This document shows, in pieces, positions 20,960 through 61,453 of a DNA stretch of 64,000 nt. The DNA lies in the IMG/VR virus record IMGVR_UViG_3300045988_167691. One strand, given 5' to 3'. The notes beneath the pieces were generated by a model. It did not search any database, was not told the DNA's origin, and was given only the letters and a program-made list of their open reading frames with translations. How positions within the stretch are numbered: the first letter of the stretch is position 1; each line of letters opens with the position of its first letter. A program made the translations under genes and the position numbers. Origin of the DNA: a virus.

Positions 20960-21472
20960 TTAGAGAAGGCATTTCCTTCTTGCGTATTCCGCTATCAAAA
21001 TTCCATCTCTATCGGGGTGCTTGTCCTTGATTTCTGGGAACAGCCTTTTTCCTATATCAAGGGATGCCTTCTTCAATTCTTTAGTGCCTACAACCCCTTT
21101 AGGTAGCATTTCCTTTTGCCATTCTTTAGAGTCTATGAACATATAAGGAACATCATAAAGCTCCAATACGGTAAGTTCCGCTTCCAAAGCACGCATAGCA
21201 GAACATGTAGCATCAAATCTTGCCGGATTTTTCATGGGACGTTCCAAGACGGCCACACACAAACCATATCCCTTTAGAGTATGAATTACTTCGGCAAGTG
21301 CCGTTACGTTCACCCTTGACACATTCTTCTTTGCTTTTGTGTAATCCTGCCCAAATGTGATAGGTGTTTCCATGAACTCATAATAGGTCAGTTCTTTTCC
21401 TACTATGCCAATAGAACCGGTCACACCGTTGTCTATCCCTATGTAAAACTTCGATTCTGTTTTCTTGTTCAT
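20960..21472 (-). CDS. RuvC-like Holliday junction resolvase
   Basis: FYIGIDNGVTGSIGIV (N-terminal catalytic Asp strand) and C-terminal HPDRDGILIAEYARR. Confidence 0.6.
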   Translation of the reverse strand: MNKKTESKFYIGIDNGVTGSIGIVGKELTYYEFMETPITFGQDYTKAKKNVSRVNVTALAEVIHTLKGYGLCVAVLERPMKNPARFDATCSAMRALEAELTVLELYDVPYMFIDSKEWQKEMLPKGVVGTKELKKASLDIGKRLFPEIKDKHPDRDGILIAEYARRKCLL

Positions 21473-23880
21473 TGTTCAATACGGCTTATGCCGTTCTCCT
21501 TTACTATTTTAAGCGTTTTGCATGAAGCGTTTTCATTCGAAATATGAGTTGTAACAAGTATAGGAAACTGAATGAACTCCAATGCTTCTATCACGTCATA
21601 TAGGCTTTCTTTCGATAGTCCTTCTGTGATTTCATCAATGGATAGGAATTGCAATCCTCCCCATTTGTTCGTCTCGTTTATCATTCCTTGTATGGCTATA
21701 ATCAAAGCGATTTCCACCCTTGCACGCTCTCCGCCACTGTAATACCAGAAGTTTTCCGCCTCGTCCCTAACAACATAAGGCGTTATCTCTTCTTTTATGT
21801 CTCCGTCTGCTTTCGTCTTAAATCCTTCTATGACAATTCTAAGATCGCTGTTTTCTGCTTTCAGAATATTGTTTGCCCGAAGCTGGATATTCTTTAACTG
21901 TTCTATCGCAAGATACATCTTGAATGATTTGAATCTTCCTATCCACTCTTTCTTGCGAAACATTTCGTTTTCCAATTCCGTCATTTCCTTGTCATACCCT
22001 GCGATAGCAAGCATCATTTCTTCTATTTGCTTTTCCTGTGAAGAAGTATCAATAGAAGAAGGCGTTTCCTTTTCGATTTCCTTTATCTGTTTTTCCAGAC
22101 GTTTTACATCTTCTTTTCCGGTAGCTATGTTTTCTAAAAGCCCTTTGTTTCGCTTTTCAAGAATGGAAATATTGGACTTTTGAGATTCTATTTCACTTGT
22201 GATCTTATAGACAGCAGATGAAATTTCTTTTCCTGCTTCCCGGATTTTGTCAAGTTCATCCTCCTGTTCGTTTTTCACTTGAATGAAAGAAGAAATAAGG
22301 TCTTCGTATTCCTTTAGGGATTCATCCAAAGATGTTATTTCCCCGACAACTTCCTTTTCCTGTTTCCCTATTTTCTCTTTTTTCTTCTCTTCCTTTTCAA
22401 GCGTAGTGTCTTGAAGTGTCAAGAACTTATGCTTGCATTTAGGACACGTAATCGTCCCAGAAAGGCTTACAAGAACTTTCCGAAGAGACACTTTCAGTTC
22501 GTCATGGATTTTCAAAAGCTCTTCTTTTGTTTCCAAAATCTCATTCTGATCTTCTTTGGCTTTTCCAAGTTCTTTTTTGACGGATTCAATCACATCTTCT
22601 ATTTCCTTAGTAGAAGGAAGTTTCTTTTTCTTTTCTTCGGCTTCTCGAAGTTCTTCTTCCAAGACTTCAAGTGTTTTCTTTCCTTTGTCAATGTTTTTCT
22701 TGTTATAGTCAATATTGTATTTAGCAGAATCAATATCTTCTTTTAAAGACTTGATTTTACTTTCCACCCTTTCGATCCTTTCCTTTCGATCCGCTTCGAA
22801 GTCGAAATTAACAGCATCTTCTATCATTTGCCGCAATGCTTCTACACTCCCTTCCGCACGATCTCTTTTGCTTTGGATAACTGATTTCTTAGATGAAATT
22901 TCGTCCAGTTCCTTTTGTATAATATCCTTACTGCCATCCAAGAAGTCATAATTGATAAAACGACTTATGAGAGCCAATTTGTCCGTATTGGAACTTTTAA
23001 AGAACGACTTATAGTATTCCTTGCAAATAAGAAAATAACTTTTCAAATCTTCCGGTGAAATACCCATCCATGAAAGGATATAGTTGTTGCCGTCTTTTAC
23101 GGTAGCAAGACTGACTGACTCGCCATTTAACGACACATTAAGTTTGCTGCTTCCTTTTAAGGGCAAAATGCGCTCAATATGGAGAGTTTCTTTCCTTATG
23201 GGACATTTTATATCAAGTAATACTTTTGCTTCCTTCTCACCGTTTCTAATCAGTTTCTTGTCAATACTGCTTCGGTAGTTGTTACCTGTTATGGCAAAAT
23301 AAACTGCCTGTTGCATGGAAGAATTATGAGTAGGCGTATAGTTGTTCGTAACAAACATCCCGTCTTCTCCCGAAACGGTAATACATTGTTGCTCTTCCGC
23401 ACCCATACAAGTAAAAGAAACCATTTTTTTAGACGGTCTGCCAAGACATCCTGGAACTTCAAAAAACACTTCTTCATCTTTGCTTCTTTCCATGATCTTT
23501 CCAAGTGAAAGTACAGACCATTCCTCGCTTTGATTTGTTCTTACTTTCCATAGATGCTCTTTGTTACATTTTATTTCCGTACTGTCGGAAAAAGTAATCT
23601 TATATGCAATATCTATATCGTGAAACGGGATTGCTCTTACCGTTTGATAAGCACCGGAAGGATGAAGAACAATATCACCCACCTGAATATTCCTCATTTT
23701 TACAAACCCATTAGGGGTAAGAATATCGGAATCCATTGTCAACGCTTTACCGCTACCGTTACTGCCTTGATTGTCGTCTGTTTTATTCAATCCCACAAGT
23801 GCGGTTACCCCATCTTGAAATGTGTATTCAAAATGCTCGAATGACACAAAATTTGTTGCTTCAATCTTGATTGGCTTCAT
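21469..23880 (-). CDS. sbcC: SbcC/Rad50-like ATPase interrupted by a mini-intein
   Basis: GSNGSGK-[intein]-SSMQ Walker A, long coiled coil with CPKC zinc hook, YSGGERARV signature and FLSIDEITEG Walker B. An alternative start lies at 23901. Confidence 0.8.
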   Translation of the reverse strand: MKPIKIEATNFVSFEHFEYTFQDGVTALVGLNKTDDNQGSNGSGKALTMDSDILTPNGFVKMRNIQVGDIVLHPSGAYQTVRAIPFHDIDIAYKITFSDSTEIKCNKEHLWKVRTNQSEEWSVLSLGKIMERSKDEEVFFEVPGCLGRPSKKMVSFTCMGAEEQQCITVSGEDGMFVTNNYTPTHNSSMQQAVYFAITGNNYRSSIDKKLIRNGEKEAKVLLDIKCPIRKETLHIERILPLKGSSKLNVSLNGESVSLATVKDGNNYILSWMGISPEDLKSYFLICKEYYKSFFKSSNTDKLALISRFINYDFLDGSKDIIQKELDEISSKKSVIQSKRDRAEGSVEALRQMIEDAVNFDFEADRKERIERVESKIKSLKEDIDSAKYNIDYNKKNIDKGKKTLEVLEEELREAEEKKKKLPSTKEIEDVIESVKKELGKAKEDQNEILETKEELLKIHDELKVSLRKVLVSLSGTITCPKCKHKFLTLQDTTLEKEEKKKEKIGKQEKEVVGEITSLDESLKEYEDLISSFIQVKNEQEDELDKIREAGKEISSAVYKITSEIESQKSNISILEKRNKGLLENIATGKEDVKRLEKQIKEIEKETPSSIDTSSQEKQIEEMMLAIAGYDKEMTELENEMFRKKEWIGRFKSFKMYLAIEQLKNIQLRANNILKAENSDLRIVIEGFKTKADGDIKEEITPYVVRDEAENFWYYSGGERARVEIALIIAIQGMINETNKWGGLQFLSIDEITEGLSKESLYDVIEALEFIQFPILVTTHISNENASCKTLKIVKENGISRIEQ
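23323..23745 (-). mobile_element. class 3-type mini-intein (141 aa) in the SbcC P-loop
   Basis: Starts ALTMDSDILTPNG, so there is no Cys/Ser at position 1. Block B is NKEHLW, block F is QQCITV, and it ends TPTHN followed by S. This is the WCT signature. Confidence 0.75.
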
Positions 23881-24949
23881 CTTCCACCTCCTTGTTTTCA
23901 AATGTTACTTCTTTCTTTCTGAACTCTGAAAGGACATCTTTTTTAATCTTGTCAAAAAGTTCTGTTTCTTTGATTAGTTTCTTCCTTGCGGCAGGGAATC
24001 CGAATCCTATCTTTTCTTCCCCGTAATAGATGTACGTTCCTTTCTTTGTGAGTACACCTAAGTCCAATCCCATGTTAAGCATTTCCATCACCTTGTCAAT
24101 ACCTACACCAAAACGGATAACAATATTGCAAGTTTTCATAGGTGGAGCAACTTTGTTTTTCCTGCATGTGATCTTCACTTTGTTTGCAACGGACACTTCA
24201 CCTTCCTTATCAGAACCTACACGGGCAAGCTCAACCCTTTGACTTGCATAAAAAGGTATTGCAAATCCTCCCGGCGTAGTAGTGGCATTGCCATATCCGC
24301 CTATATTCGATCTTATCTGATTGATACAGAATAGAATGCACCCTGTTTGCTTGCAGATGTTTTTCAAGATATTTACCTGTGAGCTTAAAAGCCTTGCTGT
24401 AAGTCCTATGTGAGCATCTCCGGCTTCCCCGTTCAAAAGAGCGGTCGGGACAAGTCCTGCAATAGAATCAATCACCACCAATCCGATAGAAGGTTCATTG
24501 CACATTTCCTTTGCTATTTCTAACGTTTCCTCTGCCGTAGAAGGTTGGGAAAGGATAAACTTGTCAGGAGAAAGGTCTGCGCCAATAGCTCCCATGTATT
24601 TCGGATCAACTGCATTTTCTGTATCAAGATACCCTACCGCCATTCCTTGTTTTTGGATTTCGGTAGCAAGATGGAAAGCTATGCTTGTCTTGCCGGAAGA
24701 AAAGCCTCCGTAGGCTTCCACAATACGCCCTTTTGCCCATCCTCCGCCAAGTATTTCATCCAGCAGGAAAGAACCAGAATGTACGAACTCTATATCTTGC
24801 TTCTTCCCCGCTATGGCTTCCTTTCCAAACCTACTTTCAATCCGGCTTATAAGATCACTGAGACGGTTCGGTTTCTTTTCTTCTTTAGGTTGCTGCACTT
24901 CCCCAGTTACCGCTTCTTCCGTTTTTTTAGTTTCCTTTTTCTTCGCCAT
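23861..24949 (-). CDS. recA: RecA recombinase
   Basis: EAYGGFSSGKTSIAFH (Walker A), VVIDSIAGL (Walker B) and the RecA-like L1/L2 region. Confidence 0.85.
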   Translation of the reverse strand: MAKKKETKKTEEAVTGEVQQPKEEKKPNRLSDLISRIESRFGKEAIAGKKQDIEFVHSGSFLLDEILGGGWAKGRIVEAYGGFSSGKTSIAFHLATEIQKQGMAVGYLDTENAVDPKYMGAIGADLSPDKFILSQPSTAEETLEIAKEMCNEPSIGLVVIDSIAGLVPTALLNGEAGDAHIGLTARLLSSQVNILKNICKQTGCILFCINQIRSNIGGYGNATTTPGGFAIPFYASQRVELARVGSDKEGEVSVANKVKITCRKNKVAPPMKTCNIVIRFGVGIDKVMEMLNMGLDLGVLTKKGTYIYYGEEKIGFGFPAARKKLIKETELFDKIKKDVLSEFRKKEVTFENKEVEDEANQD

Positions 24950-25976
24950 ACATCAACTTGTCTAAAATTTCTTTTCCTTCTTTTTCGTCATATTCGTTTT
25001 CCTTACAAAAAGCAGAAAACCTTTCTTCTATGTCCTTTTTGTCAAGTGCCTTTACTTCTGTCAACATAGAATGTTTTTCTTCCACTTCCTTAAACTTTTT
25101 CTTGATATCTATGCCTTCTTTTGTAAAGACATCCTTATCAAAGGCATCAAGTGAAGATTGTTCTCCCCAGACTTCCACTCTTACACGGGCAGTAGGGTTC
25201 TCCTTTTTGAATTTCTTGATAAGTGACACTGCCTGTTTGTGGGGAGTTTCCCCCAAATCAATTTCCAGTTTCTTAAATACTTGTCCTTTTGTAGAAGAAA
25301 CAAGATCTACATTCAAATCCGAATCCAAAAGCCAGAAACCCTTCTTTTCATCTTCCCCGAAGTTGTTTTGTTGGACACTTCCTAAATGATAGATATTCTC
25401 TCCTACCCGTTGATAGTTATGATAGTGCCCCAAGTACACTTTTTTGAACATCTGGAACATGGAAGGTTTTAAAAGGTTGGACACTTCCGATCCGTCCATG
25501 TTCTTGCTTCCTGTGACCGCAAAATGTCCAAAGAGGATATTCTTCTTTCTTTTGTCCCCTATTTCTTCCAGTTCATCCAAAAGAATATCATCTGTAAAAA
25601 ACGGAAGAAAAAAACAATACACACCTTCTACTTGCATTCCGTCCAATTCTTCTACCAAAGTAAAAGACGGATGATATTTAAAAGGAGTAAGAAACGATTT
25701 CTTGCTTGTGTAGGATGTTTTGTCATGGTTGCCGGGAATACAGATCACATGGTGTCCGCGTTTGTCGTATTCTTCCAGGACATCATTCAATGTGGAAAGG
25801 CACACTTCTCTTTGCGATACTCTGTTATCAAAAATATCACCCAACCATATATGGGTTTGTATCTTTTTCTTTTCTGCCAAGTCAAGTTCTTCCAAAAGAA
25901 TATCTTTTATAATAGTGGCATTATCGGCAGTAAGATGATGATCCGTTGAAATTATAGCTAAATATTTGCTGTTCAT
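24927..25976 (-). CDS. sbcD: SbcD/Mre11-like nuclease (metallophosphoesterase)
   Basis: ISTDHH, WLGDIFD, PGNHD, FGHFAV and LGHYH. Start placed at MNSKYLAI. The track ORF extends to 26018. Confidence 0.75.
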   Translation of the reverse strand: MNSKYLAIISTDHHLTADNATIIKDILLEELDLAEKKKIQTHIWLGDIFDNRVSQREVCLSTLNDVLEEYDKRGHHVICIPGNHDKTSYTSKKSFLTPFKYHPSFTLVEELDGMQVEGVYCFFLPFFTDDILLDELEEIGDKRKKNILFGHFAVTGSKNMDGSEVSNLLKPSMFQMFKKVYLGHYHNYQRVGENIYHLGSVQQNNFGEDEKKGFWLLDSDLNVDLVSSTKGQVFKKLEIDLGETPHKQAVSLIKKFKKENPTARVRVEVWGEQSSLDAFDKDVFTKEGIDIKKKFKEVEEKHSMLTEVKALDKKDIEERFSAFCKENEYDEKEGKEILDKLMYGEEKGN

Positions 25977-26058
25977 GATCGAAATTGTTAGGAAAGGGGA
26001 GAACACAAAGTTCTCCATTCCCTTTCGGATTGATATATTAGAAAAACGAAAAGAAAAA

Positions 26059-45646: not shown

Positions 45647-48600
45647 TTATTTCCATCCACTTGGAACACCCTCGCAATTTGTGCCTGTAAAAGTCTGACT
45701 ATGACTTGTTACATTATTGTTCCCAGACTCCGTTATCTTTACATAATTGGATGATCCGGAAAGAATTTGAATAACAGGGACAGTTCCAAGTTTCGAGCAA
45801 CCATAAAACATTCTGTCCATATTAACCTTTCCTACACCTGCTGATGATCTATCGTATAGGGACGTGTATGAAACTGCATAGGTCTGTTCTGTTCCTAAAG
45901 AAAGATTTGTACAGTTTGCAAACATTTCAGTACAATTCAAATTACCACTGATATTCTCAAAATTGGTATCATTAAACTGATTTCCTATATCCACATTCAC
46001 AGGTCGTGCAGATGTTCCTGGTTGTCCTACATAATTCCCTGTTCTTCCAAAAGAAGTGAGTGACGTGCATCCTGCAAAGCATCTCCTAAGATTAGTAAGT
46101 GTCGTAAGATCATTAAAGAACTTAGCGGGAATTTGTTTCACACCCGTGTTCTCAAACATACTTTCTGCATTCTGCAACTTTCCATTCTTCATATTAAAAG
46201 AAGATATATCAGATAAATTCCTACAATTCGCAAACATTCTTGAAGCGTTTGTTACACTTGACGGAAGTCCCTGTCCATAAGGAATAGACAAATAAGTACA
46301 ATTCTCAAACAATGACTGCATATTTGTTGCCTTCGAAGAGTAAGAAAACATAGCGGTAGACCAGCCGTCGACAAGACTTGTACAACCGACAAAGCAACCA
46401 ACAAAAGAAACAATGTTTGTGCAATATCTGAACCATAATACCGGAAGTTCGGTTATGGCTGTGCAGCCTTGAAATGTATATTGCATATACTGTGCATTCG
46501 TTGAATTGCTAAATGGAGAACTTGTAGCTGATTGACCTCCTGTATTTTTCAAAGCCGTACATTCAAGAAATACAGCATGGAAATCTTCTGCGCCACCTCC
46601 CCTTCCAAAAGTACCATTGCCAACGCATGAAGTCAAACTCTTACAACTTCTAAACAAGGAAGAATGATAAACACATGAAGTAGGAACAAGTTGACCACTC
46701 GGGAGACTTGTAACCCCACTGCTCCAGAAAGCACCCGCACAAGAATTACCTGTCATTTTGGTAAACAAACCAGAAGGAATAGACCTAAGACTTGTGCAAT
46801 CTCTAAACCAACAGATAACACCCCCTGAAATAGAAGGAATTGTGTTTGTTGCAATCGATGAAAGACTTGTACATCCTCTAAAGGCAGAATGGTTGCCGCC
46901 GGCATCGTCCACATTATAAGTGCCAGAACTTCCCTGAATAGAAAATGATTCGGGCCACTGTTTGATTGCAGTAGCTCTTGTATGATTTCTGAAATTGGCA
47001 TACACAGTAGAAGGGTTACTTGTATTTCTACTTCCGCCTTGTACCCTTACCTCTCTCCCCACTATTTCATAAACGCCATTTGATACAGATGGCGTTTGAG
47101 GCGATCCGCTATAAGAAACGATAAGAGCTTTCCAAAGATAAAGGTAAATACTGTTCCCTCCTGCGTTCGTTGATTCATCCCCTGTCCCTACACATTCCGA
47201 ATCCGTAGCGGAAGCATACACATAACCTCCAGAAGGAGAAGAAACCGTTATCCTACCACTTCCATTTGTCTGATCTGTACCACTGTAATAAGACGATCCG
47301 TCAGGCGCGGTAGTTCTTATATTCACGGAAGCATAAGGTTGCAATACATTTTCCTTTCTAAGATAAATATAAGTTGTCGTAAGCTCATAGTCAAGGGTGA
47401 AATCTATATACGTGTCAGCTCCCGATATTGCAATATTGTTTTTCGTTTGGGATTGATAATTGTCTGCCGTACAAGTGGCATTATACGACCCTGATTGTAT
47501 TCCAGTAAGTGTAAGCTGTCCTTGTGAGTTGGTGTACCCACTCTTTCCTCCATAAGTTACGTAAGCTCGATTAATGTTATATCCATTTCGGGATTTCACT
47601 GTAATATGAGCACTGTAAGTCTTGTTAGAAACACCTACCCTTTGTTGTGGCATTGATTCCTGATTAACTGTGACAGAACCTTCCGTAGGCTGATAGTCAT
47701 AAACGGAAACTTCATATCTGTAAGTTTTCCCCATCTGCATCATAAAGGTCGTTGTACCGTCCGACCCTGTATTTTGCGTACTAAGTCCTTCTGGTTTTAC
47801 AGAAGCTCCTGAAACTGGAAGCCCTGTATCGGAATTATAAACATAGAACTGCACTCTCGTTTCTTTTCTTGGCATTGCAACATTCACCGTCTTTGGAAGG
47901 TCATTTGGTTGCACAACCCCTGTCTGGTTACTGAAATATTGCTTCGAAGCCACCCAATCATAACGCATTCTCGGAACAGAGAATTTGCTCTGTCCGTTAT
48001 TAGTCAGACCTGTTTGTTCTCCTGCACCTCCTTGATTAAGCGTTATCCTTGTACCGTTGGAAATGATACCGTTATCCTCTGTTACAACAAATGTAAGATC
48101 ATACAAGGTTTGATCCATATAGATGCTCACCACTTGATCATTTCCATTTACAGTAAATTGCTGCTCTCTGTCCTCATATTCCTCATAGGATGCTATGACA
48201 GTGTATTGTCCATTGGGAAGTTCCAACACAACACCAGAAGAATCTTCCTGCACAAAATCCTTATCGTTTACTTTCACTTTCGCACCTTCAACGACTGTTC
48301 CTCCTGCGCCATACACCTTGATAGTAGTCTTATAGGTAAGCTGTTTCAAGTCTATCGTAAGGTTCGAATTATTATAAAACTCATAGTTTTCCACATATAC
48401 CCGTTGATGATTGTTGTCGTAAAATACATCATAAGAATATTTTCCACCCAACACTCCTTCAAAAACAGCCTGCCCATTGTCAGAAGTCTGTTTTGTCAAA
48501 CCTGCAAATCTTACGGTAGCTCCATTTAAAGGCTTTTTCTCTCCTGTAAAAGTGTTGTAGTCATTCACAGCAAACGTCATGCCAAAAGTAGGCATAGGAT

Positions 48601-51269: not shown

Positions 51270-53285
51270 TTATTTTGCTTTTAAAGTTTGTAAATAGTTA
51301 TATGCTTTGATACAGTCGTCTTTGGAGAGGAGTTGATCGTTGTAGATGCCTAAGTTTTTTAGGGCTATTTTGGTAAAATTTGATTCATAAAAACCTAAAA
51401 ATAAACGTTTTGAAATATCAATATCACTTCCAATAGGATAAACTTTGTATTTATCCCATTTTTCATCATACACCCATCCATCAGAAGTCAAAGCGTTAAT
51501 CTTTTTACAAGAAAAAGGATAGCTTCTTAAACCCTGTTTTAAATAAATCCTCATTCCTGTTATAGCATTATAGATGTAAATTTGATTTGCTTTCAATAAT
51601 CCTGCATTATCTTTTCTATCTTCCATAAACTTCCAATCACCAACAATGGTAAATTTATCTGCGAATTGAATTGGTTTAGCACTGATTATTCCATCATCCA
51701 CCCCATCAGTAATGAGGTATCCTTCGTATTCGGGGATTTGCTCAACTAAAACATCTACTTCTTGTGAAGAATTATACCATATACCATTTGTCGAAGTTGC
51801 AGCATACTGTTTTTGGAAAGTGTATGTACCATCTTCATTAACGCTAATATATTCACCGCTTTTGTTTGCATTTCCAATAAAACAACGATCACCTTCTTTC
51901 ATGCCTGTGATACGTATCTTCCAATCAGCAGAATTAGATGTATTTAATAAAACCAAAGCATTACTGTTGTTCCCAGTTCCGATTATTCTAAATGAATCTT
52001 TTTTTACATCTGTGGGCTTAACTACATTATCTTTAAGATTAAATGAGTTGAAGTTATATGCATACAACCCATACCCACTCCCTTCTGCAAACCCAAAATT
52101 AGACAGCACAAGATCATTACCATTGCCCGTAATGTTGGCAATAGTAGCACGATCTTCGTCCTCATTGGTTTTGCCGGTGACAGTCCATGCCTGGTCGGGG
52201 AAGAGCCAGGGATAGGTTTTAACGAAGTAGTCTTTGATCTTGGTCAGCTCTTCTTCAGTGGCATCGTGGTCGAGAAATACAAGTTCCCAAATAGCAGCGT
52301 TAATACAAATTCCTACATTTCTTGTAGCTAATTTTCCAACATATAGCACATCTGTTCCTGTAAAATTACCAGTTATAATCGAAACACCATTATAACTTTT
52401 AGATGTCTGATAAGTAAGGATGTGTGGTGAATCCTTTTCACTCCCTATTGTTCCAAAAGACATCGGACGATTAAAATAATTGGTATTTACATTACGATAT
52501 TCTAACAAGAAGGCACCATCATTGAACCAATCCTTTACATTAGATACTAATCCTGAGACTATTTCACCCCTTGTAATCCACTGTCTCAACGCCACAACCG
52601 TATATCCCTTTTCTTTAGTCAGAATAGGGAAGTTATCACAGGTACCGTAATCATCTACTCCGTCAAAAACGAGTGCACCGGGGTAGAGAGGTAGTTGTTC
52701 GATGGTGATATTGCATGATTCCTGTAATTTTAAGAACCTGAATCCGTAATAAGCTTTTTTAGCTCCAAAATCAAAACTTGGTAGATGATATATACCATCA
52801 TTTTCAATTCTCATTATAACAGTTGCTTGTGTCCCATTCGAAACATATTCAATTCCTTGTCCGTCTGTTAAACCAGAAACTTTGATAGTACATGATAAAA
52901 CCCTAAATCCAGTATCACTTAGTAATGATTGATAAAATAATTGAGCTAATCCATTATCCTTTATTGATCTTGCATTAAAAGACTTATAAGTCCAAGTGAC
53001 ATCAATTCTTGATTCTACCTTATACCATTTATTACTATTATAGTTCTCTGTATATCCACCTACCCCACTCATTCCACCCCAAGCAAAATTCTTCATCTGT
53101 AAATCATGTCCATTGCCTGTAAGGTCTTTCCATACAGGGTTCTCTGCCATCTGTTCATTAGTAAGACCTAATGCTGAATACCTTGCAATCATACCAGGTA
53201 CAGATGGGAAAGGAGTTACTCCACCCCCTCCCCTAAATCTCCTAAAAGGAATTGCATTAATATTTCCTATTAAATTCATTGTCAA
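51270..53285 (-). CDS. tail fibre / receptor-binding protein with two LamG (concanavalin-like lectin) type domains
   Basis: LVFDGVDDYGTCDN and YLITDGVDDGIIS are characteristic LamG_3 strands. Confidence 0.5.
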   Translation of the reverse strand: MTMNLIGNINAIPFRRFRGGGGVTPFPSVPGMIARYSALGLTNEQMAENPVWKDLTGNGHDLQMKNFAWGGMSGVGGYTENYNSNKWYKVESRIDVTWTYKSFNARSIKDNGLAQLFYQSLLSDTGFRVLSCTIKVSGLTDGQGIEYVSNGTQATVIMRIENDGIYHLPSFDFGAKKAYYGFRFLKLQESCNITIEQLPLYPGALVFDGVDDYGTCDNFPILTKEKGYTVVALRQWITRGEIVSGLVSNVKDWFNDGAFLLEYRNVNTNYFNRPMSFGTIGSEKDSPHILTYQTSKSYNGVSIITGNFTGTDVLYVGKLATRNVGICINAAIWELVFLDHDATEEELTKIKDYFVKTYPWLFPDQAWTVTGKTNEDEDRATIANITGNGNDLVLSNFGFAEGSGYGLYAYNFNSFNLKDNVVKPTDVKKDSFRIIGTGNNSNALVLLNTSNSADWKIRITGMKEGDRCFIGNANKSGEYISVNEDGTYTFQKQYAATSTNGIWYNSSQEVDVLVEQIPEYEGYLITDGVDDGIISAKPIQFADKFTIVGDWKFMEDRKDNAGLLKANQIYIYNAITGMRIYLKQGLRSYPFSCKKINALTSDGWVYDEKWDKYKVYPIGSDIDISKRLFLGFYESNFTKIALKNLGIYNDQLLSKDDCIKAYNYLQTLKAK

Positions 53286-53294
53286 TTCCTTTCC

Positions 53295-53621
53295 TTAAAA
53301 ACCTATACTAAGATTGGTTGCCGTTGTCCCTTCTTTCAAAATCTTCTGAACCATGTACATGAGTGGCATTCCTATATTTGCACTCACTTCCGCTTCCGAA
53401 ATGGTATATTCCATTCCACCTGAAAGGATTACCTTAATTGCCCCTTCGGAAAGAGGAATAACTACAAACGGAACTTCTTGTCCGTTTTGGTCAATCAGCA
53501 CAATATCTTCTTCAATTGTGGCAAAATTCCATGCACTGCTGATTAAAGAAGGTGCTGCTTCACCATTAGTAGTTATCAGCTTATTGGAATTAGCTGTTAC
53601 TGTTCTTTTAACTATATCCAT
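53295..53621 (-). CDS. hypothetical protein, 108 aa, next to the invertible segment
   Basis: ORF only. No recombinase motifs. Confidence 0.45.
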   Translation of the reverse strand: MDIVKRTVTANSNKLITTNGEAAPSLISSAWNFATIEEDIVLIDQNGQEVPFVVIPLSEGAIKVILSGGMEYTISEAEVSANIGMPLMYMVQKILKEGTTATNLSIGF

Positions 53622-53685
53622 GATTATGAAATTTTTAAACGTTTAAAACAAAGTATATACTTACCCACAAAAATAACCTTTCTTT

Positions 53686-54504
53686 TTGAGAAAATACAAA
53701 ACCTACCTTCTTTTCTTTCGCCAATCCAATTACCAATTAGATACATCATACAAATACGTTTCCCTTTTGATAGTTGGAAGGGGAGGTTACGGTAAAGATA
53801 CCGACAATGCTCCAAATGCGCCTGAATGGTATGGAGGTTGCATGGGTGGAGACAGTGCAATTGTTGCTTATCAGAAGAATTTTATAATAAGTCAATCTAT
53901 AGACGGAATGTGGAGATATGAAACTATAGATTTCAGAAAATCAATATCAGGAAACATGGGTCTTTACGTAAAATTTGTGTGTTATGGCTCTACATATGAA
54001 GTGTTTTTGGGCGATCAAAAAAATGGACAAGAACATAGAGATACATATTGGTTTTTCAAAGTGAACGGGCAAGGAAATCTTTCGCCGTTCATTTATGGTA
54101 GAAACGAAGGAGGTCTCGCAACACCTGAATTGGTTGCAGGAGCAGGAGGAAGTAGCAGTAGCGGACAGTATAGTACATCTATTTCTGGTATGAAATACGG
54201 TGGGGTAGGTGGAGATGGAAGATATGGCAATCAAGGTCCAGAGTATAATTCAGGACTAAAAGCTGATTCTACTATCCCTGTTCAATCTATTTTTGGAGGT
54301 ACAGGGTACGGAGCAGGGAGTTATTTCGCTTCAACCGACAACTGCAAAGCCGGCGGCGCGGGAGGTTATGGAGATGGAAGTATGAACGGCAGAGCTGGAT
54401 ATGGTGCTGGCGGAACAGCTTTCAAAATATCTTCATCTTCAACTGATTTTTATAATGAAGGCAACGGGATTGTCTGCTTGTATTATCATAACAACCCTCT
54501 GTAA
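53686..54504 (+). CDS. silent alternative tail-fibre C-terminal cassette (no ATG, no promoter; paralogue of the last 280 aa of the 2297-aa fibre)
   Basis: The track start is a TTG. The sequence begins with the IR-encoded peptide. It shares IPVQSIFGGT, Gly-rich tracts and a C-x-YYHN-x-P terminus with the expressed tip. Confidence 0.7.
   Translation: MRKYKTYLLFFRQSNYQLDTSYKYVSLLIVGRGGYGKDTDNAPNAPEWYGGCMGGDSAIVAYQKNFIISQSIDGMWRYETIDFRKSISGNMGLYVKFVCYGSTYEVFLGDQKNGQEHRDTYWFFKVNGQGNLSPFIYGRNEGGLATPELVAGAGGSSSSGQYSTSISGMKYGGVGGDGRYGNQGPEYNSGLKADSTIPVQSIFGGTGYGAGSYFASTDNCKAGGAGGYGDGSMNGRAGYGAGGTAFKISSSSTDFYNEGNGIVCLYYHNNPL
53721..53787 (+). repeat. 67-bp inverted repeat, left arm
   Basis: Exact reverse complement of 55340-55406, checked base by base. 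Confidence 0.95.
54277..54303 (+). repeat. inner inverted repeat, left arm (25/27 match)
   Basis: cctgttcaatctatttttggaggtaca compared with the reverse complement of 54794-54820. Encodes PVQSIFGGT in both cassettes. Confidence 0.8.
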
Positions 54505-54514
54505 ACAAAAAGAA

Positions 54515-54543
54515 AAGGGAGAGTGAAAAATATGCTCTCCCTT
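54515..54543. terminator. hairpin between the two convergent cassettes
   Basis: aagggagag / ctctccctt form a 9-bp stem with an 11-nt loop. A T-tract (TTCTTTTTGTTT) follows only on the - sense side. Confidence 0.55.
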
Positions 54544-54559
54544 AATGATTCTCAACAAG

Positions 54560-57500
54560 TTATATAGGTTCGTTGTGGTAGTATATACAAAATATACCTT
54601 CTCCTGGTCTTGTAATATTTCCCGCATCATCATCTGCCGGAGAAGATTCTTCTCCAGAACCATACCCAGCAATTCTTGTCTTTCCTCCGTCTGGAGAAGT
54701 GAAATAAGAATCACCATAGCCTGCGCCTCCATATGCGGATGCACCAGTTCTTTGTCCAGATAAAGTGTTCAAATACCCAGCTCCACCTTTACTTGTACCA
54801 CCAAAAATAGATTGGACAGGAATAACAACTGAGGATTGAATAGGTTTAGTCACTTTTCCCAAAACAGTATCTTCATAAGAACTTTTAAATCCATATTTAC
54901 CATCTCCACCTGGTGCACCGTCTGGTTGTATTCTTAGACCTGTAGAAGGATAAGTTTCTTCTTTTGCGTTTTGGCTTCCCGGACTTCCACTACAATAGAA
55001 TGTACCTATCATGTGGGCAGCAAAACCACCGGAACTTTTTGCATTATATACAGAATAATTGCCCAATCTACTTCCTTGTGGCATGGGGAGATCGGCATCA
55101 TTTTGAGCATTACCTTTCCCATTATAGGCTCTACATTCATAAGTTGTTATTCCTAATCTTATGGAATACTCTGTGCCTTCTGTCCAACTGCCTGTATTTG
55201 GTATAGAACTAAATGTAATTTTATTTATTTGGCCATTTGAAATATCCGACATCAATATATTAGGAATATACACAATTTGTCCAGTTGTTCCACCCATCAA
55301 TACAAATTCATTCCAAGAATCCCAATACTCAAATTTTTCACCTCCCCTTCCAACTATCAAAAGGGAAACGTATTTGTATGATGTATCTAATTGGTAATTG
55401 GATTGGTCACTTGTTATCTGCACCAACTTGTTCGGTTTAGTTAGGGTGTATTCCAAATTCACACTTGTTTGATAAACCCCACTTATACTTCCTGTCGTTG
55501 AAAAATCACTGAAACCAGAAGATGTAATCTTAATCTGATAATTTCCCGCAGGAATTTTGTCAAACCGTGCCGTGTATGTTGCTGGTCCTGCCGAACCTGT
55601 ATGCTTCTGCCCTTCTGAATCTGTAAATTCCACATTACCACCAGTAGGGTTTACTTTTACTTGCACCATATACAGCGGAGTAAGATTTACTTGCACCTGC
55701 ATTCCTTCACTGTTCACAGTAATGCTTTGGGATGTTTCTTTGGAAAAATCCCCTTCCGGTACATACAAGATATACTGTCCGTATGCGACATTGGCGAACG
55801 TTACGGTAGTGGTTATATTTTTAGTCTGAATCACCTCTAGCCCCGTACTGTCCTTTAGTTGGATTTGGCTTGGCATACCTTGCATTTGTCCAACTCTTCT
55901 TACCTGAACATTCAGAGCACTGTATATCTTCTTTAAAGAAATATTTATCTCTTTAGAAGAAGTTACATAGTCCGAATAGACTGTGTTTTCATAGCCACTC
56001 TTTTCTACGGTAAAGATATTTGAGCCACTCTTTACCGTAAGAACAGCATTCCCTTGCGAATTTGTAACGCCCGTTACTTTTACATTCCCGTTTTCGGCTG
56101 TAACCTTTGCGCCTGAAACAGGAGAACCGCTTGATGTATTCTCCCTTACAGTTACAGTTACACTCACACCCTTTTCCAATGTAACAGAAATACTTTTTAT
56201 TTCAGAAATAACACCAGTTTCTCCAGTTGCAGTCATATATCCATCGGCAGCAACTTCATAACTGAATGACTGTCCTAATGGGACATTTATTCTTGCCACG
56301 CCATCTTGTCCTGTCGTACCGGAATATATTTTCCCATCAGTTTCCGATACAGTAATCCTTGCACCCTCTAAAAAAGTTGTTCCGCTATCGCCACCATACA
56401 CCAAGAAAAGCAATGTTGTAGTTGAAGAAATAAACACTTCTTGATTTACAGAGGGCAAATGAACAGACATAAAGCCTTTTTTAGGCTGCAATGGTAAAGG
56501 TGGGGTTACCACATAATCATAACTTCCATACAAAACTTTATTTTCTGGAATATCCGAACTTTTTACCTTCTTTCCGTAGAAAGAGAATGTGATATTCAAA
56601 TCTTTCAAATCATCTGCGGATAATGTACCTCCGTCAAAAGATTGCACATACACTGACCAAATGGTAGGATTACCTATTGTTTTTGTATCCAACAAAAGAT
56701 CAGAAAGCTGGAATCTTTGAATTACATCATTTTCCATCTCCACCGTTAAGGGAGCGTTTTGCGAGCCATAAGTTATAACTATCTTCAGATTGGACGGAAC
56801 ACCACTTACCTTAAAACCAAAATCCAAAGCCTTGTGATAATCCACTGTCTTTTCTGTGCCAATTTGGAAAAGACCATTCGAAAACCCTATAAGTCCGGCA
56901 TCCACATTAAACAAAACATAAGTCTCTGTAGAAGCTGTCGATGTCTTAATTACACTCGTTAAAGTAAGGTTCTTTTTCGTTTTATCCCAGCTTCCCTCCC
57001 AGCCATCTATTTTATTTGAATTGTAAATTCTGGTAAGACTTTCCGTAATACCACCATTATCCTTATCCTGAACAATTGTCAATGGAGAAACAATTACACC
57101 ATTGGGGAAATAGGTTTTTAATTGATCTGTTGTTACACCTTCCGATGGAACAAGATATTTTTCATCTTCTTGAAAAACAGGACAACCGGAAAAATCCGCA
57201 TCGCTGTCTTGTGACCACTCAAACTCTCCACCATCAAACGTCATAATAGCAACACCACTGCTGTTTGTAGTTCCTTTATATTTATTGGAAGAGTTATTTC
57301 GATCAACCATCGTCACGACAGCGTTTTCTATTGCAGTATTTTCATCTTCAACCTTGACGGTAAACTGGACATCTGATATTTGCTTCATTTCAAAGCTAAT
57401 ATCAGCCTGTCCATTGCTTACCGTAAACTCGCCACTAAAATCCAAATAGCCGTCTTTTGTTGCTGTATAAGTGTAATTCCCGTTTCTGTTCTGGAATGTA

Positions 57501-60500
57501 GCAACACCACTCGATGCTTTGCCTGAATCAATCACCGTGCCAGGAGCTTCCTTTCTATAAATATTGATATCTGGATTTGCATAAGCAGGCGTTATCTGAA
57601 ATATAATGCTATACTTCACGTAATCAGTAAGGTCAATATCAACCTGTTTCGCTTGTAATCCAACTTCAAAGCTGCCGTCCGGTACATCTATCAAATCAGA
57701 ATTATTGCTTTCGTCAGTCGGGATCGAATAAGTATAGCTCCCCTCCGGTAAAGAAATAGTAGCTATTCCACTTTGATTAGTAACGATCGTTTGGGGAAGA
57801 ACCCTTTGTGTCGCACTATTTACTACAATCTTAACATCTGACTTGACACTGTTACTTACTATTGTCTTAAACGTGACAATAGCTCCCCGTATCATCGTTA
57901 TACTTACACTCGTTTCAGCTTCGTTTACCCTTACCGTGCCGTTCCCAGATTGATAACCTTCCTTCGAATAGGTGTATGAATGTGTACCTGTAGAAAGATT
58001 TGTTTTTGCTGTACCATCCTGTGTTGTTGTGATTGTTTCTGCGTTATCTATAACAATTTTAGCACCATCAACAAAACCTCCTTCTTCGTCTTTTACAGTA
58101 AATGTCGTTTCAAACCCAAAAACCAGTTCAACTGCTTTTTCTTGGTCGGCATCCTGTATGCTGCCTACACCTTCTTCTGGTGAGTATCCTGCAAGTAACG
58201 CACCCCAATCATAAGCACCGTTTATTACCTGTACAGGGTCAGTCGTACCATCGTCTTTTGTTTTGAGGCTTACAGTGTTCCCACTTAATATGGCTGCACC
58301 ACTCACACTGACGGCTACATCCTTTAATCCTGATTTTCCTGCGGCAGTCACTTTAAAGGTAAGATTCCATATCTTCTTTAAAATCTGTGTAAACGTTTCC
58401 TCTTTTGTTACTTCAAAAGGTAGTTCTTCACCCTTATACCCTTCTTTTGAAAATGTAGCCGTGTATCGCCCTGCTTTCAATTTTAAAGTAGCTTCACCAT
58501 TTGTTCCGGTAACAAGAGCTTCTTCTTTACCGGAAATCCCAATAGATACGCCTTGCAAAAGATTGGGGGAACTCATATTGTCTTTTGCAATAAACGTAAT
58601 ATTGTAAGACATAGGAACAAGCTGCACCAGCACATCTTTATTGCTGCCAGAAACCGATATGCTACCTTGTGTCTGTACATATCCGTCTTTTGTTACAGTG
58701 TAAGGGTAATCTCCATCAGAAAGACGAACTGTTACCAATCCACCCTGCGAAGTCTGATAGTCCTTTTCGTTGATATGAATATTAGCGTTTTCAATTGCAA
58801 CACCTTCATCTGTCTGTACAGTAAATACAATATCGTATTTCTTGTACTCCATATTTACAGGGAAAGACGGAATATCCGCACTTACAACTTCCAGCTCGCC
58901 TAAATAATCGTCCATACCATTGGCAACCACCGTAAACGGATATGTACCATTTTTTAACTGCAAGGACACCTCACCATTATCCTGTGTCTGATAAGACGTT
59001 GCATTTATCTCCACTGTAGCCCCCTTAATAGGTTCTTTCAATGGATTTTTTACCGTCATTATGACATTGTAAAGTCTTGCCTTTAAACTTATTACACTAC
59101 TGTTATCACTGTCAAGAACAGTAACCGAAGAACTGCCGTCATAATATCCCGACTTTGTTACGGTATAAGGATATGTCCCGTTTTGAAGGCTTGCAACAGC
59201 TTGACCTCTTTCATTTGTAGGATAAGAAGAGCCATTGATATTTACTGCTGCTCCTTGTGCCGGACTACTGTTATCACTGTTCTTGACAGTGATAACCACA
59301 TTATAATGTTTCAATACAAGGGTTCTTCGAATTAATGTATCCTGTCCTTCTACGTTGAACGATCCGGTCAAATCATCATATCCCTTTTTCTGCACGGTGT
59401 AGCTGTAATTTCCACTCTTTAATTTTATAGTAGCTTGTCCAGAACCGTTTACATTCAATACTCCCGGCTGTCCTTCTATTTTGATTGTAGCTCCTTCTGC
59501 CGGATTCCCCTGATTTACCTGCGAAATATTAAATTCCACATTGTATAAAAAGAAATCCATCTCAAAGGTAACGTCCGCATTCTGGTTGTTGACCTTAATT
59601 TCCCCCTGTAAAGTATCATACCCTGTCTTTTCGATTGTTACAGGATATTCACCATTTACAAGTGGTATTTCCACCTCTCCATGCTGGCTCGTAAGATATT
59701 CTCCATTGTTCACCTTTACAATGACATTCGGTATAAGCTGATTTTCCTTATCCTTTACAATGACAGTAATCGTCCATACCTTAAATTCCAATTCAGGATA
59801 TACTTCTTTATCTCTACCATCCACAACTACACTGCCGGAATACTCATCATATCCCAACTTTTCAATAGTGTAGGGATAGTTCCCGTTCCTTGCGGACAAA
59901 GAAGCCACACCTTGCAAATTGGTAGTGGTTGTTCTGTTATCCATCGTTACATTTGCATAAGGAACAACCCCTCCCTTTTCGTCCGTCATATGGAAAGTGA
60001 CCGTATAAGGAGCTAAAACCATTTGTACATCAATGAAAACACTACCGTTCAACACTACAAACATTCCTTCTGCGGGGATATATCCCGAAGCGGAAACAAT
60101 ATATTCATACTGTCCGTTTGCAAGTTGGATAATAGCTTGTCCGTTGTCATTAGTTACAACCGCATTGTTTCCTATAGAAATATTTGCACCCTCAACAGGT
60201 CTCCCATCCGAATCTGTTACATTGAAATAAACCTCTTGATAAAGGTTAAGTGAACTGTCATTAATACCCACAAACAAATCTTCCGATTCTGCCGGATAGA
60301 ATAGTGGTGAAAGGTTGCTGTCAGAATCGTACAAAACATTGCCGTCTTGATCTCGCATAACGAACCCTCTGATACGCGGTAACTGGTTTGCCGGAACTTG
60401 CTGGTCGTAATACGGAAAAAAGTATTCGTCCGGCACATATTTTACACCATCGGTCTTTTTTACAATATCCAGCAAATCGTCCCATTCTACGATTTTTCCA

Positions 60501-61453
60501 GGTGTCCAAAAACGAAAATCAAGATATTTAGTAAGGCTCACTTGTATGTTCTGACGCACAGTAGACACATCGTAATCCGGTTGAAGCTGAACACGGAAAT
60601 CCAACCCCCTTTCTGAACCCACATAGAACCAATCAATATTCTTGATACCAATACCAACTACTTTCCCTTCAATATTCAGTTCTGAAATACCAAAATATCC
60701 TTGTGCGCTTTCAAGAAGTGTATCAAGTTCTTCTTCGGTAAAGAAAATACCGTTCTGCGAAACAACATAGAGATTATATATGCCCTTTTCGTCCAGACCG
60801 GCACTCATTACTTTTAAGACACGATCGTCTATGTTGCTAAGTGTCTGTGTCCAGTATTCTATTGTATTCTTGCTAAGGATATTCAGATTGTTCTTAATAC
60901 GGATTCTAAACGTTTCATCATCCTCACTATCACGTCCTCCAATAGCATAATATTCATTCGTACATTCGATATGACCTTGTGGCTGCGGAGAAACATTAGT
61001 AATGCTATTAGGCGGTACGTTTGTGGAATACCCTGCGTTGATACTTCTTACCTTTACATATCCGTAACCACTTTCCCCTACAGTCAATGCTTCGTCAACT
61101 TGGAAACGAATACCGTTCTTGTTCACAAAAGTAACGTCAGTACCATACACAGTACCAGGATCAGCAGACACCCTTATATATGTCGAAGAACCCAAAGCAC
61201 CTTTACGCGGGCTGACACCATACAAAGCAGCAGCCTTATCCAGATAAACGCCTGTAGCTGTATCTGGAAATATCTGCGCTTCCTTTATGGCAATATCCTT
61301 CATTGCCTTTTGAGCAACTTTCGCTACACCGAATGCCGTAGCATTCACAACCGAACCGTCAGCTACATTACTTACCTTGGCAGTCTTATCCAAAAACATC
61401 TCTATAAAGAGATTTTTCAAATTGGTTATCGTTGCACTTGTTTTTGTAATCAT
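54560..61453 (-). CDS. baseplate J-like protein fused to a giant fibre (2297 aa) with a switchable Gly-rich C-terminal tip
   Basis: The N-terminus (AFGVAKVAQKAM..., YLDKAAALYGVSPRKGALGSS) resembles Baseplate_J. It has more than 10 carboxypeptidase-regulatory-like repeats (NGNYPYTIEKLGYD, NGTYPYTVTKSGYY ...). The C-terminus is Gly-rich. Confidence 0.75.
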   Translation of the reverse strand: MITKTSATITNLKNLFIEMFLDKTAKVSNVADGSVVNATAFGVAKVAQKAMKDIAIKEAQIFPDTATGVYLDKAAALYGVSPRKGALGSSTYIRVSADPGTVYGTDVTFVNKNGIRFQVDEALTVGESGYGYVKVRSINAGYSTNVPPNSITNVSPQPQGHIECTNEYYAIGGRDSEDDETFRIRIKNNLNILSKNTIEYWTQTLSNIDDRVLKVMSAGLDEKGIYNLYVVSQNGIFFTEEELDTLLESAQGYFGISELNIEGKVVGIGIKNIDWFYVGSERGLDFRVQLQPDYDVSTVRQNIQVSLTKYLDFRFWTPGKIVEWDDLLDIVKKTDGVKYVPDEYFFPYYDQQVPANQLPRIRGFVMRDQDGNVLYDSDSNLSPLFYPAESEDLFVGINDSSLNLYQEVYFNVTDSDGRPVEGANISIGNNAVVTNDNGQAIIQLANGQYEYIVSASGYIPAEGMFVVLNGSVFIDVQMVLAPYTVTFHMTDEKGGVVPYANVTMDNRTTTTNLQGVASLSARNGNYPYTIEKLGYDEYSGSVVVDGRDKEVYPELEFKVWTITVIVKDKENQLIPNVIVKVNNGEYLTSQHGEVEIPLVNGEYPVTIEKTGYDTLQGEIKVNNQNADVTFEMDFFLYNVEFNISQVNQGNPAEGATIKIEGQPGVLNVNGSGQATIKLKSGNYSYTVQKKGYDDLTGSFNVEGQDTLIRRTLVLKHYNVVITVKNSDNSSPAQGAAVNINGSSYPTNERGQAVASLQNGTYPYTVTKSGYYDGSSSVTVLDSDNSSVISLKARLYNVIMTVKNPLKEPIKGATVEINATSYQTQDNGEVSLQLKNGTYPFTVVANGMDDYLGELEVVSADIPSFPVNMEYKKYDIVFTVQTDEGVAIENANIHINEKDYQTSQGGLVTVRLSDGDYPYTVTKDGYVQTQGSISVSGSNKDVLVQLVPMSYNITFIAKDNMSSPNLLQGVSIGISGKEEALVTGTNGEATLKLKAGRYTATFSKEGYKGEELPFEVTKEETFTQILKKIWNLTFKVTAAGKSGLKDVAVSVSGAAILSGNTVSLKTKDDGTTDPVQVINGAYDWGALLAGYSPEEGVGSIQDADQEKAVELVFGFETTFTVKDEEGGFVDGAKIVIDNAETITTTQDGTAKTNLSTGTHSYTYSKEGYQSGNGTVRVNEAETSVSITMIRGAIVTFKTIVSNSVKSDVKIVVNSATQRVLPQTIVTNQSGIATISLPEGSYTYSIPTDESNNSDLIDVPDGSFEVGLQAKQVDIDLTDYVKYSIIFQITPAYANPDINIYRKEAPGTVIDSGKASSGVATFQNRNGNYTYTATKDGYLDFSGEFTVSNGQADISFEMKQISDVQFTVKVEDENTAIENAVVTMVDRNNSSNKYKGTTNSSGVAIMTFDGGEFEWSQDSDADFSGCPVFQEDEKYLVPSEGVTTDQLKTYFPNGVIVSPLTIVQDKDNGGITESLTRIYNSNKIDGWEGSWDKTKKNLTLTSVIKTSTASTETYVLFNVDAGLIGFSNGLFQIGTEKTVDYHKALDFGFKVSGVPSNLKIVITYGSQNAPLTVEMENDVIQRFQLSDLLLDTKTIGNPTIWSVYVQSFDGGTLSADDLKDLNITFSFYGKKVKSSDIPENKVLYGSYDYVVTPPLPLQPKKGFMSVHLPSVNQEVFISSTTTLLFLVYGGDSGTTFLEGARITVSETDGKIYSGTTGQDGVARINVPLGQSFSYEVAADGYMTATGETGVISEIKSISVTLEKGVSVTVTVRENTSSGSPVSGAKVTAENGNVKVTGVTNSQGNAVLTVKSGSNIFTVEKSGYENTVYSDYVTSSKEINISLKKIYSALNVQVRRVGQMQGMPSQIQLKDSTGLEVIQTKNITTTVTFANVAYGQYILYVPEGDFSKETSQSITVNSEGMQVQVNLTPLYMVQVKVNPTGGNVEFTDSEGQKHTGSAGPATYTARFDKIPAGNYQIKITSSGFSDFSTTGSISGVYQTSVNLEYTLTKPNKLVQITSDQSNYQLDTSYKYVSLLIVGRGGEKFEYWDSWNEFVLMGGTTGQIVYIPNILMSDISNGQINKITFSSIPNTGSWTEGTEYSIRLGITTYECRAYNGKGNAQNDADLPMPQGSRLGNYSVYNAKSSGGFAAHMIGTFYCSGSPGSQNAKEETYPSTGLRIQPDGAPGGDGKYGFKSSYEDTVLGKVTKPIQSSVVIPVQSIFGGTSKGGAGYLNTLSGQRTGASAYGGAGYGDSYFTSPDGGKTRIAGYGSGEESSPADDDAGNITRPGEGIFCIYYHNEPI
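54794..54820 (-). repeat. inner inverted repeat, right arm
   Basis: tgtaccaccaaaaatagattggacagg. Partner is 54277-54303. Confidence 0.8.
55340..55406 (-). repeat. 67-bp inverted repeat, right arm (inside the expressed fibre gene)
   Basis: Exact reverse complement of 53721-53787. Confidence 0.95.

Follow-up and report, generated by a model that had tools for sequence, protein, structure and literature searches.

A putative tail-fibre tip inversion switch bounded by in-frame inverted repeats in a gut phage

The G segment of phage Mu and the C segment of P1/P7, the invertible segments of Gin and Cin (e14 Pin and p15B Min belong to the same type), are bounded by inverted repeats and lie at the junction between the constant and the alternative parts of a fibre. 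Of the two tips, one is expressed and the other, lacking a start, stays silent; the host range is presumed to alternate. In Mu, the recombination sites fall where the constant and variable parts of the S coding sequence meet, and the inverted repeats of the P1 C segment are much longer. Among the Bacteroidales, phages are evaded by phase-varying capsules and surface proteins, and how the phages of these hosts keep pace is, to our knowledge, largely unknown beyond diversity-generating retroelements. Here we analysed a 64,000-nucleotide stretch of the virus record IMGVR_UViG_3300045988_167691 (hereafter the window), which carries a tail-fibre locus with a layout like that of the Mu and P1 segments. 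Judged from its sequence and from related genomes, this locus is very probably a two-state DNA-inversion switch which exchanges the distal 240-260 residues of a long baseplate-anchored tail fibre. Recombination between the two arms of an inverted repeat would flip the segment, after which the constant fibre body would read into the other tip and the displaced tip would become the start-less silent cassette. To the explanation as a whole, that is, such a switch in a non-integrating gut phage, with a presumed role for the tips and with homology-dependent exchange, we assign a probability of roughly 0.8.

The inverted repeats and the two fibre tips

A repeat search recovered the perfect 67-bp inverted repeat described in the first-pass annotation of the window (67 nt, 100% complementary, spacing of 1552 nt; Table 1), and a scan of the whole window returned this pair as the sole long perfect inverted repeat, which rules out chance as its explanation. 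Both arms are translated in frame as QSNYQLDTSYKYVSLLIVGRGG and, as had been proposed, one of them begins at residue 2017 of the fibre gene (54560..61453, - strand; 2297 aa). The conserved ...SYKYVSLLIVGRGG junction is the peptide encoded by these in-frame inverted repeats. Pfam places a Baseplate_J domain at the N-terminus of the fibre gene, followed by about ten CarboxypepD_reg/PEGA repeats, which identifies the 2297-aa protein as a baseplate-anchored fibre.

The variable parts, tip A of 259 aa and tip B of 238 aa, had been described as diverged paralogues, and alignment bears this out. They are ~31-33% identical over the alignable stretches and have in common IPVQSIFGGT, Gly-rich tracts and a C-terminal C(I/L)YYHN. 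In agreement with the earlier reading, the + strand frame of tip B contains no ATG from the upstream stop to the arm, and the TTG at 53686 is the mechanical start of this open reading frame (ORF). Starts called for the tip B homologues are inconsistent (MLLVGRGG, MIVGRGG, MGGD, MIAF and others), indicating that no initiation codon is conserved. All A and B cassettes examined are open from the arm to the stop and conserved in length, tip B being intact at 34 of 34 loci despite divergence between lineages down to 48% amino-acid identity. The Nei-Gojobori median ratio of nonsynonymous to synonymous substitution rates (dN/dS) is 0.33 for tip A and likewise for tip B (>120 pairs each) and, judged by this measure, both tips are under equal purifying selection. 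A cassette that lacks a start, yet has diverged this far under a constraint equal to that on the expressed tip, must be regularly translated, and fusion by inversion is the only route that we see for its translation.

Gene callers do annotate ORFs of 214-291 aa at the position of tip B, and 31 residues into the cassette there is a Met that is almost invariant. Tip B might on these grounds be an independent gene with an internal start (e.g. the conserved Met of CMGGD), producing a separate 220-aa protein, in which case the repeat would be incidental. We consider this very improbable. In addition to the inconsistency of the called starts, the same Met is conserved internally in tip A, the 22 arm codons that lie upstream in the same frame remain identical to those of the fibre, and direct fusions of the fibre to tip B exist in relatives, as described in the following section.

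The AlphaFold2 model of tip B (17 sequences) was poor, with a predicted local distance difference test score of 55.8 and a predicted template modelling score of 0.62. Its top Foldseek match in the PDB, a tail-tip chain of Bxb1, was not significant (E = 0.11). A profile search of PDB sequences returned no match, and Pfam returned only a sub-threshold Gly_rich_2. Among relatives (loci L002-L020 and L060-L073), A-tips ~85% identical to that of the window are paired with B-tips whose identity to its tip B is 99%, 93%, 91% or as low as 50%; this semi-independent assortment of tip types implies that cassettes are also swapped between lineages.

Only in the fibre (-) sense, which is the A-on reading direction, does a U-run follow the hairpin between the convergent stops, and a fibre-B transcript made after a flip would reach the hairpin without a U-run. 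Through this asymmetry, orientation may alter read-through into the silent cassette and g108, the gene downstream of the switch, for which no family match was found. The extent to which arm homology reaches into the outer flank varies by lineage.

The fibre body itself varies in length among relatives, from ~2290 to ~2860 aa, through domain blocks inserted in its middle and C-terminal parts (seen in loci L009 2189-10792, L028 2834-10870, L225 4920-8876 and beyond). Its repeat region in the window contains a 32-nt imperfect (84%) inverted repeat (59091-59122 / 59276-59307, 153 nt apart), and the relative L001 matches a 27-nt core of it in either orientation. Another very long structural protein (45647-50593, - strand; 1648 aa) carries CarboxypepD_reg repeats and DUF285; neither inverted repeats nor an alternative cassette were seen for it.

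Table 1. Features of the proposed switch and of the neighbouring recombination/repair module, in window coordinates.
Feature	Position	Strand	Description
Segment total	53721-55406		1.69 kb; two convergent tip cassettes, A and B, with a hairpin between them
Arm, g108 side	53721..53787		in frame with silent tip B, at its head; encodes QSNYQLDTSYKYVSLLIVGRGG
Arm within fibre gene	55340..55406		residues 2017-2038; junction of constant body and exchangeable tip
Tip B cassette	53788..54504	+	238 aa plus stop; silent here; without its own start codon
Inter-cassette spacer	54505..54559		between convergent stops; hairpin with 9-bp stem, 54516-54524 / 54540-54548
Tip A cassette	54560..55339	-	259 aa plus stop; current expressed C-terminus of the fibre
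Constant fibre body	55407..61453	-	Baseplate_J and ~10 CarboxypepD_reg/PEGA immunoglobulin-like repeats; outside the invertible segment
Outer flank	53622..53720		g108 start codon to arm; remains with g108 in either orientation
g108	53295..53621	-	conserved 108-aa gene downstream of the switch; fixed landmark for orientation calls
RecA	23861..24949	-	PF00154, E = 7e-68
SbcC-like protein	21469..23901	-	phrog_77, E = 3e-41; recombination/repair module beside RecA
Metallophosphoesterase	24927..26018	-	PF00149, E = 3e-8; SbcD-like by position beside the SbcC-like gene and RecA

Both orientations among related phages

An IMG/VR scan seeded on the tips yielded 58 loci on contigs of ~100 kb, to which the GenBank relative MT835500 was added. 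Classification by tblastn gave 40 loci with tip A only, 17 with the arrangement of the window (A-on, B silent) and two, L009 and the short L013, in the opposite state. About one third of the related ~100-kb gut phage contigs carry the start-less tip B. A metagenome scan seeded on tip B alone added 14 further two-cassette loci, one of them flipped (L069), so that 3 of the 33 two-cassette loci from these orientation-unbiased scans are flipped (~9% B-on). In the flipped state a B-type tip continues the fibre body in frame, and the A-type tip lies silent on the opposite strand beside g108.

Further flipped contigs (L225-L230, L233, L234/L235 and L237) were supplied by the look-up of nine of the many short A-type ORFs which a protein-database search with tip A had returned. 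Seven of the nine occupy the silent position beside g108, facing the long fibre gene (P0018, P0039, P0044, P0028, P0035, P0043 and the contigs carrying them), and the other two are A-on fibres broken by a stop or a frameshift. The flipped loci comprise L009/L013/L228/L229, L069, L225-L227, L230, L233 and the short contigs L234/L235/L237. The protein-database searches returned no long fibre proteins, even for tip A, and the lack of long B-fusions among their results is therefore uninformative.

The comparison with related genomes that the first-pass annotation had called for thus returned both orientations. In pairwise blastn alignments, flipped and unflipped relatives have collinear flanks and an exactly inverted middle, and the overlap of the alignments is restricted to the arms. 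Flank identity is 90-91% for L009 with unflipped L011, 82-95% for L069 with L067, L017 and L019, 96-99% for L225 with L062, 84-98% for L233 with L018, and 82-96% for L230 with L008. The flipped fibre ORFs are intact through tip B to the stop and end in the B-type ...YYHN motif, as expected from the earlier proposal that inversion between the arms would keep the frame and replace the distal part. From these alignments we conclude that both states are natural, with breakpoints inside the arms and with intact ORFs in both fusions.

When the two-cassette segments were clustered at >=99.5% identity, 25 clusters were obtained, five of them with flipped members and one with both states. In the mixed cluster, flipped L225-L227, which come from three assemblies, differ from unflipped L006/L007/L063 at 7 of 1522 segment nt. 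Inversion has accordingly taken place independently in at least four lineages, and at least once very recently. A single segment with a single pair of repeats, 1489-1562 nt apart, is present at every two-cassette locus. Where a genome has one tip only, the stop of the fibre gene is directly followed by a homologous hairpin and the g108 leader, and the extra element of the two-cassette genomes is therefore exactly the arm plus tip B.

The inverted repeat does disturb assembly, as some contigs (L060, L061) end inside an arm, and flipped contigs might be assembly errors in which the repeat was resolved wrongly. This explanation is extremely improbable, since the arms, at 35-68 nt, are below the typical read length and below the k given in the contig names (k119, k127), three different assemblies (L225-L227) agree on the flipped state, and it recurs in separate samples and lineages. 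Contigs that end at the arms, and contigs of ~1.6 kb, were considered as a sign of mixed orientations within a sample and rejected as non-diagnostic; the short contigs inspected are low-coverage fragments, and breaks at the repeat arise with a single orientation too.

In some single-tip relatives a ~1.3-kb insert separates the fibre from g108; it proved to be a TnpB element and not a third cassette or an invertase. Its position, exactly between the fibre stop and g108, points to this intergenic spot as an insertion hot-spot. TnpB elements (OrfB_IS605 plus Cas12f-like TNB) occur in the window at 39944-41155 (- strand) and elsewhere in L074 (20618-21829), L028 (10971-12182), L034 (10952-11974) and L225 (725-1909).

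Search for a recombinase and the route of exchange

The first-pass annotation had seen no adjacent invertase, and none came to light elsewhere in the window or, in relatives, in the remainder of the genome. Pfam detected no Resolvase, Recombinase or Phage_integrase domain (PF00239, PF07508, PF00589) in window ORFs of >=100 aa, PHROGs added no recombinase among the unassigned window ORFs, and no recombinase domain was present in the other ~42 kb of the genome, outside the window, in the relative MT835500. In a comparison of IMG/VR genomes, 14 with two cassettes and 22 with a single tip, ~62 kb of each was covered (the fibre with 10 kb to either side, together with the 42 kb that lie outside the window), and the only ORF specific to the two-cassette genomes was tip B. 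A hix/gix half-site consensus (TTATCAAAAACC, <=2 mismatches) had no match in the arms, and its matches in the window were fewer than expected by chance.

The arms behave as tracts of homology. Equivalent arms are present in every two-cassette relative, with lengths of 35-68 nt; the inner edge is fixed at GRGG, where tips A and B cease to be alignable, while the outer edge varies with lineage. Over a 34-nt arm core the two arms of one genome differ by 0.77 nt, as compared to a mean of 5.5 nt between genomes. Up to 7 of 19 positions in the middle of the arm differ between lineages, yet both arms of one genome are identical there, and the frame across the arm is kept in every lineage. Inside the arm of the close relatives L016, L067 and L069, variants linked to A and variants linked to B form mosaics that differ from one relative to the next, a pattern which is as expected of gene-conversion patches with variable ends. 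The suggestion that perfect arms between diverged bodies reflect ongoing exchange thus gains support from the concerted evolution of the arms.

The exchange itself would proceed by homology-dependent recombination, most simply during replication, and the prime candidate for its catalysis is the phage RecA/SbcCD module. We lean slightly towards this route over a dedicated site-specific invertase, because no invertase was found, the arms behave as homology tracts and RecA lies beside SbcCD-like genes.

The same switch could instead be operated by a site-specific recombinase acting in trans, either a Bacteroidales host invertase or an unrecognised phage protein, on a core site within the arms. 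In accordance with such a site, TACAAATAC and the arm end GGRAGRGGRGG are conserved in all lineages, several phage ORFs have no family assignment, and invertible regions without a nearby recombinase are noted by Milman et al. (PMC9881135). The conserved motifs are equally explained by the conserved peptide YKY...GRGG, however, and the lineage-specific variation of the arm middle, the conversion patches with variable end-points and the lack of a hix/gix half-site match are contrary to a fixed site. Neither the domain searches nor the co-occurrence comparison provided a gene for such an enzyme. We therefore regard a recombinase in trans as unlikely, though still a serious alternative to homology-dependent exchange.

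Several points weigh against the explanation that we favour. About 80-90% of the assemblies are A-on and about two thirds of the relatives have no tip B; switching may consequently be rare, and tip B is dispensable in many settings. Both orientations are known from assembled contigs of relatives and not from one population. The replication half of the genome was inspected in the window alone, outside the co-occurrence comparison, and several window ORFs, e.g. of 493 aa and 380 aa, are without any family match. The evidence for RecA as the candidate catalyst of arm-to-arm recombination is circumstantial, and a role of the tips in setting receptor or host specificity is suggested by their distal position and by analogy.

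The predominance of single-tip and A-on genomes, together with the failure to find a dedicated enzyme, would also be in keeping with the absence of any programmed switch, tip B being the remnant of an inverted duplication, or a piece gained by horizontal transfer, and the flips rare neutral accidents of homologous recombination. A remnant would hardly be expected to stay intact at every locus over such divergence, to show the dN/dS of the expressed tip, to keep its frame across the arm in every lineage and to flip independently in at least four lineages, once very recently. We hold this possibility to be improbable.

A broader proposal, which we put forward tentatively and at somewhat less than even odds, is that a virulent phage performs a programmed host-range switch without a site-specific invertase, using short in-frame repeats of 35-68 nt and its own RecA-type machinery, and that the two-cassette segment is flipped with sufficient frequency for purifying selection to keep a start-less tip across a family of gut Bacteroidales phages. 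If true, recombinase-free phase variation would be a phage counter-strategy to phase-variable host surfaces. For a widespread ~100-kb gut phage family, the locus offers a concrete, testable answer to such surfaces in the form of paired fibre tips flipped by inversion. It suggests that a switch of this kind needs no dedicated invertase to persist; searches keyed to a neighbouring recombinase gene would miss it, and short intragenic inverted repeats in virulent phages therefore merit systematic screening. The cassettes are in addition natural frame-compatible swap modules, which could guide the engineering of host range in Bacteroidales phages.

The phage and its relation to known switches

Nearly all genes of the window are on the - strand. 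The gene set identified with Pfam and PHROGs includes a DnaE-type polymerase in two ORFs (DNA_pol3_alpha, PHP and finger domains), superfamily (SF) 1 and SF2 helicases (UvrD and SNF2), an NAD-dependent ligase, RecA, an SbcCD-like pair (with Metallophos), a terminase, tail-tube and sheath initiators and a TnpB element; for a primase there was a weak Toprim match only. This content resembles that of the proposed 'Gratiaviridae', to which it was matched by description: DnaE polymerase, primase, SF1/SF2 helicases, SbcCD, RecA, contractile tail and baseplate (Benler et al. 2021, PMC8008677). Spacers from clustered regularly interspaced short palindromic repeats (CRISPR) point to Bacteroides and Parabacteroides as hosts of that family (PMC8008677), and the hosts of the present phage are probably Bacteroides or Parabacteroides. 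In the gene downstream of g108, short stretches share 82-94% identity with crAss-like and Parabacteroides phages, and a relative carries a BACON domain, both of which are consistent with this host range. No relatives of the tips were found in species-representative bacterial and archaeal genomes and no integrase was found, which makes the phage look non-integrating. It appears to be a virulent, contractile-tailed gut phage of ~105 kb. Among GenBank phages, only unannotated 'Bacteriophage sp.' fragments gave matches.

This gene is g671 (51270-53285, - strand; the region 52061-53211); parts of it have 82-94% DNA identity to the crAss-like phages cr1_1, cr55_1 and csAssE-Sib ('pentaxin family protein') and to Parabacteroides merdae phages, a similarity which suggests a recent exchange of adhesin modules between unrelated gut phages. 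It lies downstream of g108. Intein-like insertions (Hint and/or homing-endonuclease/LAGLIDADG) are present in three essential genes on the - strand (10398-12935, 34609-37134 and 37146-39245), namely a UvrD-type helicase, a DnaB-like helicase and the large terminase. The two consecutive DnaE ORFs (28174-30246 and 30304-31854, both - strand, ~57 nt between them) contain PHP with the first part of the NTPase domain, and then the remainder with fingers and HHH; they represent either a split gene or an unrecognised insertion. Two + strand ORFs are preceded by the copies of a 65-nt direct repeat (3-67 and 1037-1101, 94% identical), which terminates in ATG and looks like a duplicated leader or promoter region.

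In the literature, a full-text search found neither this switch nor any tail-fibre inversion described for this phage group. With serine-invertase switches the locus shares a segment found in both orientations and a constant part outside it, with in-frame alternative C-termini; a Resolvase gene adjacent to or within the segment and fixed crossover sites of ~26 bp with conserved half-sites were not found. Of the differences from Mu G and P1 C listed in the first-pass annotation, the lack of an invertase and of an accessory gene held, whereas the length of the arms and their intragenic position are not distinctive when set beside Mu and P1. The features that do set the locus apart are that no Gin/Cin-type or other recognisable site-specific recombinase was found in the phage, that the segment holds no U/U'-type accessory genes, and that the arms behave as homology tracts of variable length which co-vary between lineages, in place of a fixed 26-34-bp site. 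The setting also differs, an apparently virulent and probably Bacteroidales-infecting phage as compared to the enterobacteria of the Mu/P1 type.

Two other types of variation system are not matched. A shufflon inverts several segments between sfx repeats by means of Rci, whereas here we observe one segment and one repeat pair, and no tyrosine recombinase was found in the window or in the 42 kb of MT835500. As regards diversity-generating retroelements, Pfam scans of the window and of the 42 kb of MT835500 gave no reverse transcriptase domain, and no direct repeat in the window, such as a template/variable pair would form, matches the tips. The locus does match homology-driven (RecA-type) cassette recombination in having tracts that are homogenised within a genome, diverged between genomes and variable in their ends. 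The pilE/pilS system of Neisseria is a case of RecA-dependent antigenic variation from silent cassettes. It likewise has promoter-less, start-less cassettes, homology at conserved junctions and conversion-like patches; pilE, however, receives non-reciprocal copies from an archive, whereas we see reciprocal inversions of a single cassette pair, in which RecA has a presumed role.

Gene-altering inversions in bacteria and prophages were surveyed by Milman et al. 2023 (PMC9881135), who confirmed prophage tail-fibre inversions with long reads and named viruses as still unsurveyed. In their loci, too, intragenic repeats swap C-termini, tail-fibre genes are enriched and some cases have no recombinase nearby. 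Those loci are in chromosomes and prophages, usually with recombinase neighbours, while the present one belongs to a free, non-integrating, uncultured gut phage family. In the genome isomerism of Anabaena cyanophages, a ~30-kb segment lies between inverted repeats of 400-700 bp (bioRxiv 10.64898/2026.02.14.705889). Similar to our observations, both orientations occur there among close relatives without tracking phylogeny, and no dedicated recombinase has been identified. The cyanophage repeats are ten times longer and move a whole genome module with no re-splicing of coding sequence, whereas in the locus described here the C-terminus of one protein is rewritten.

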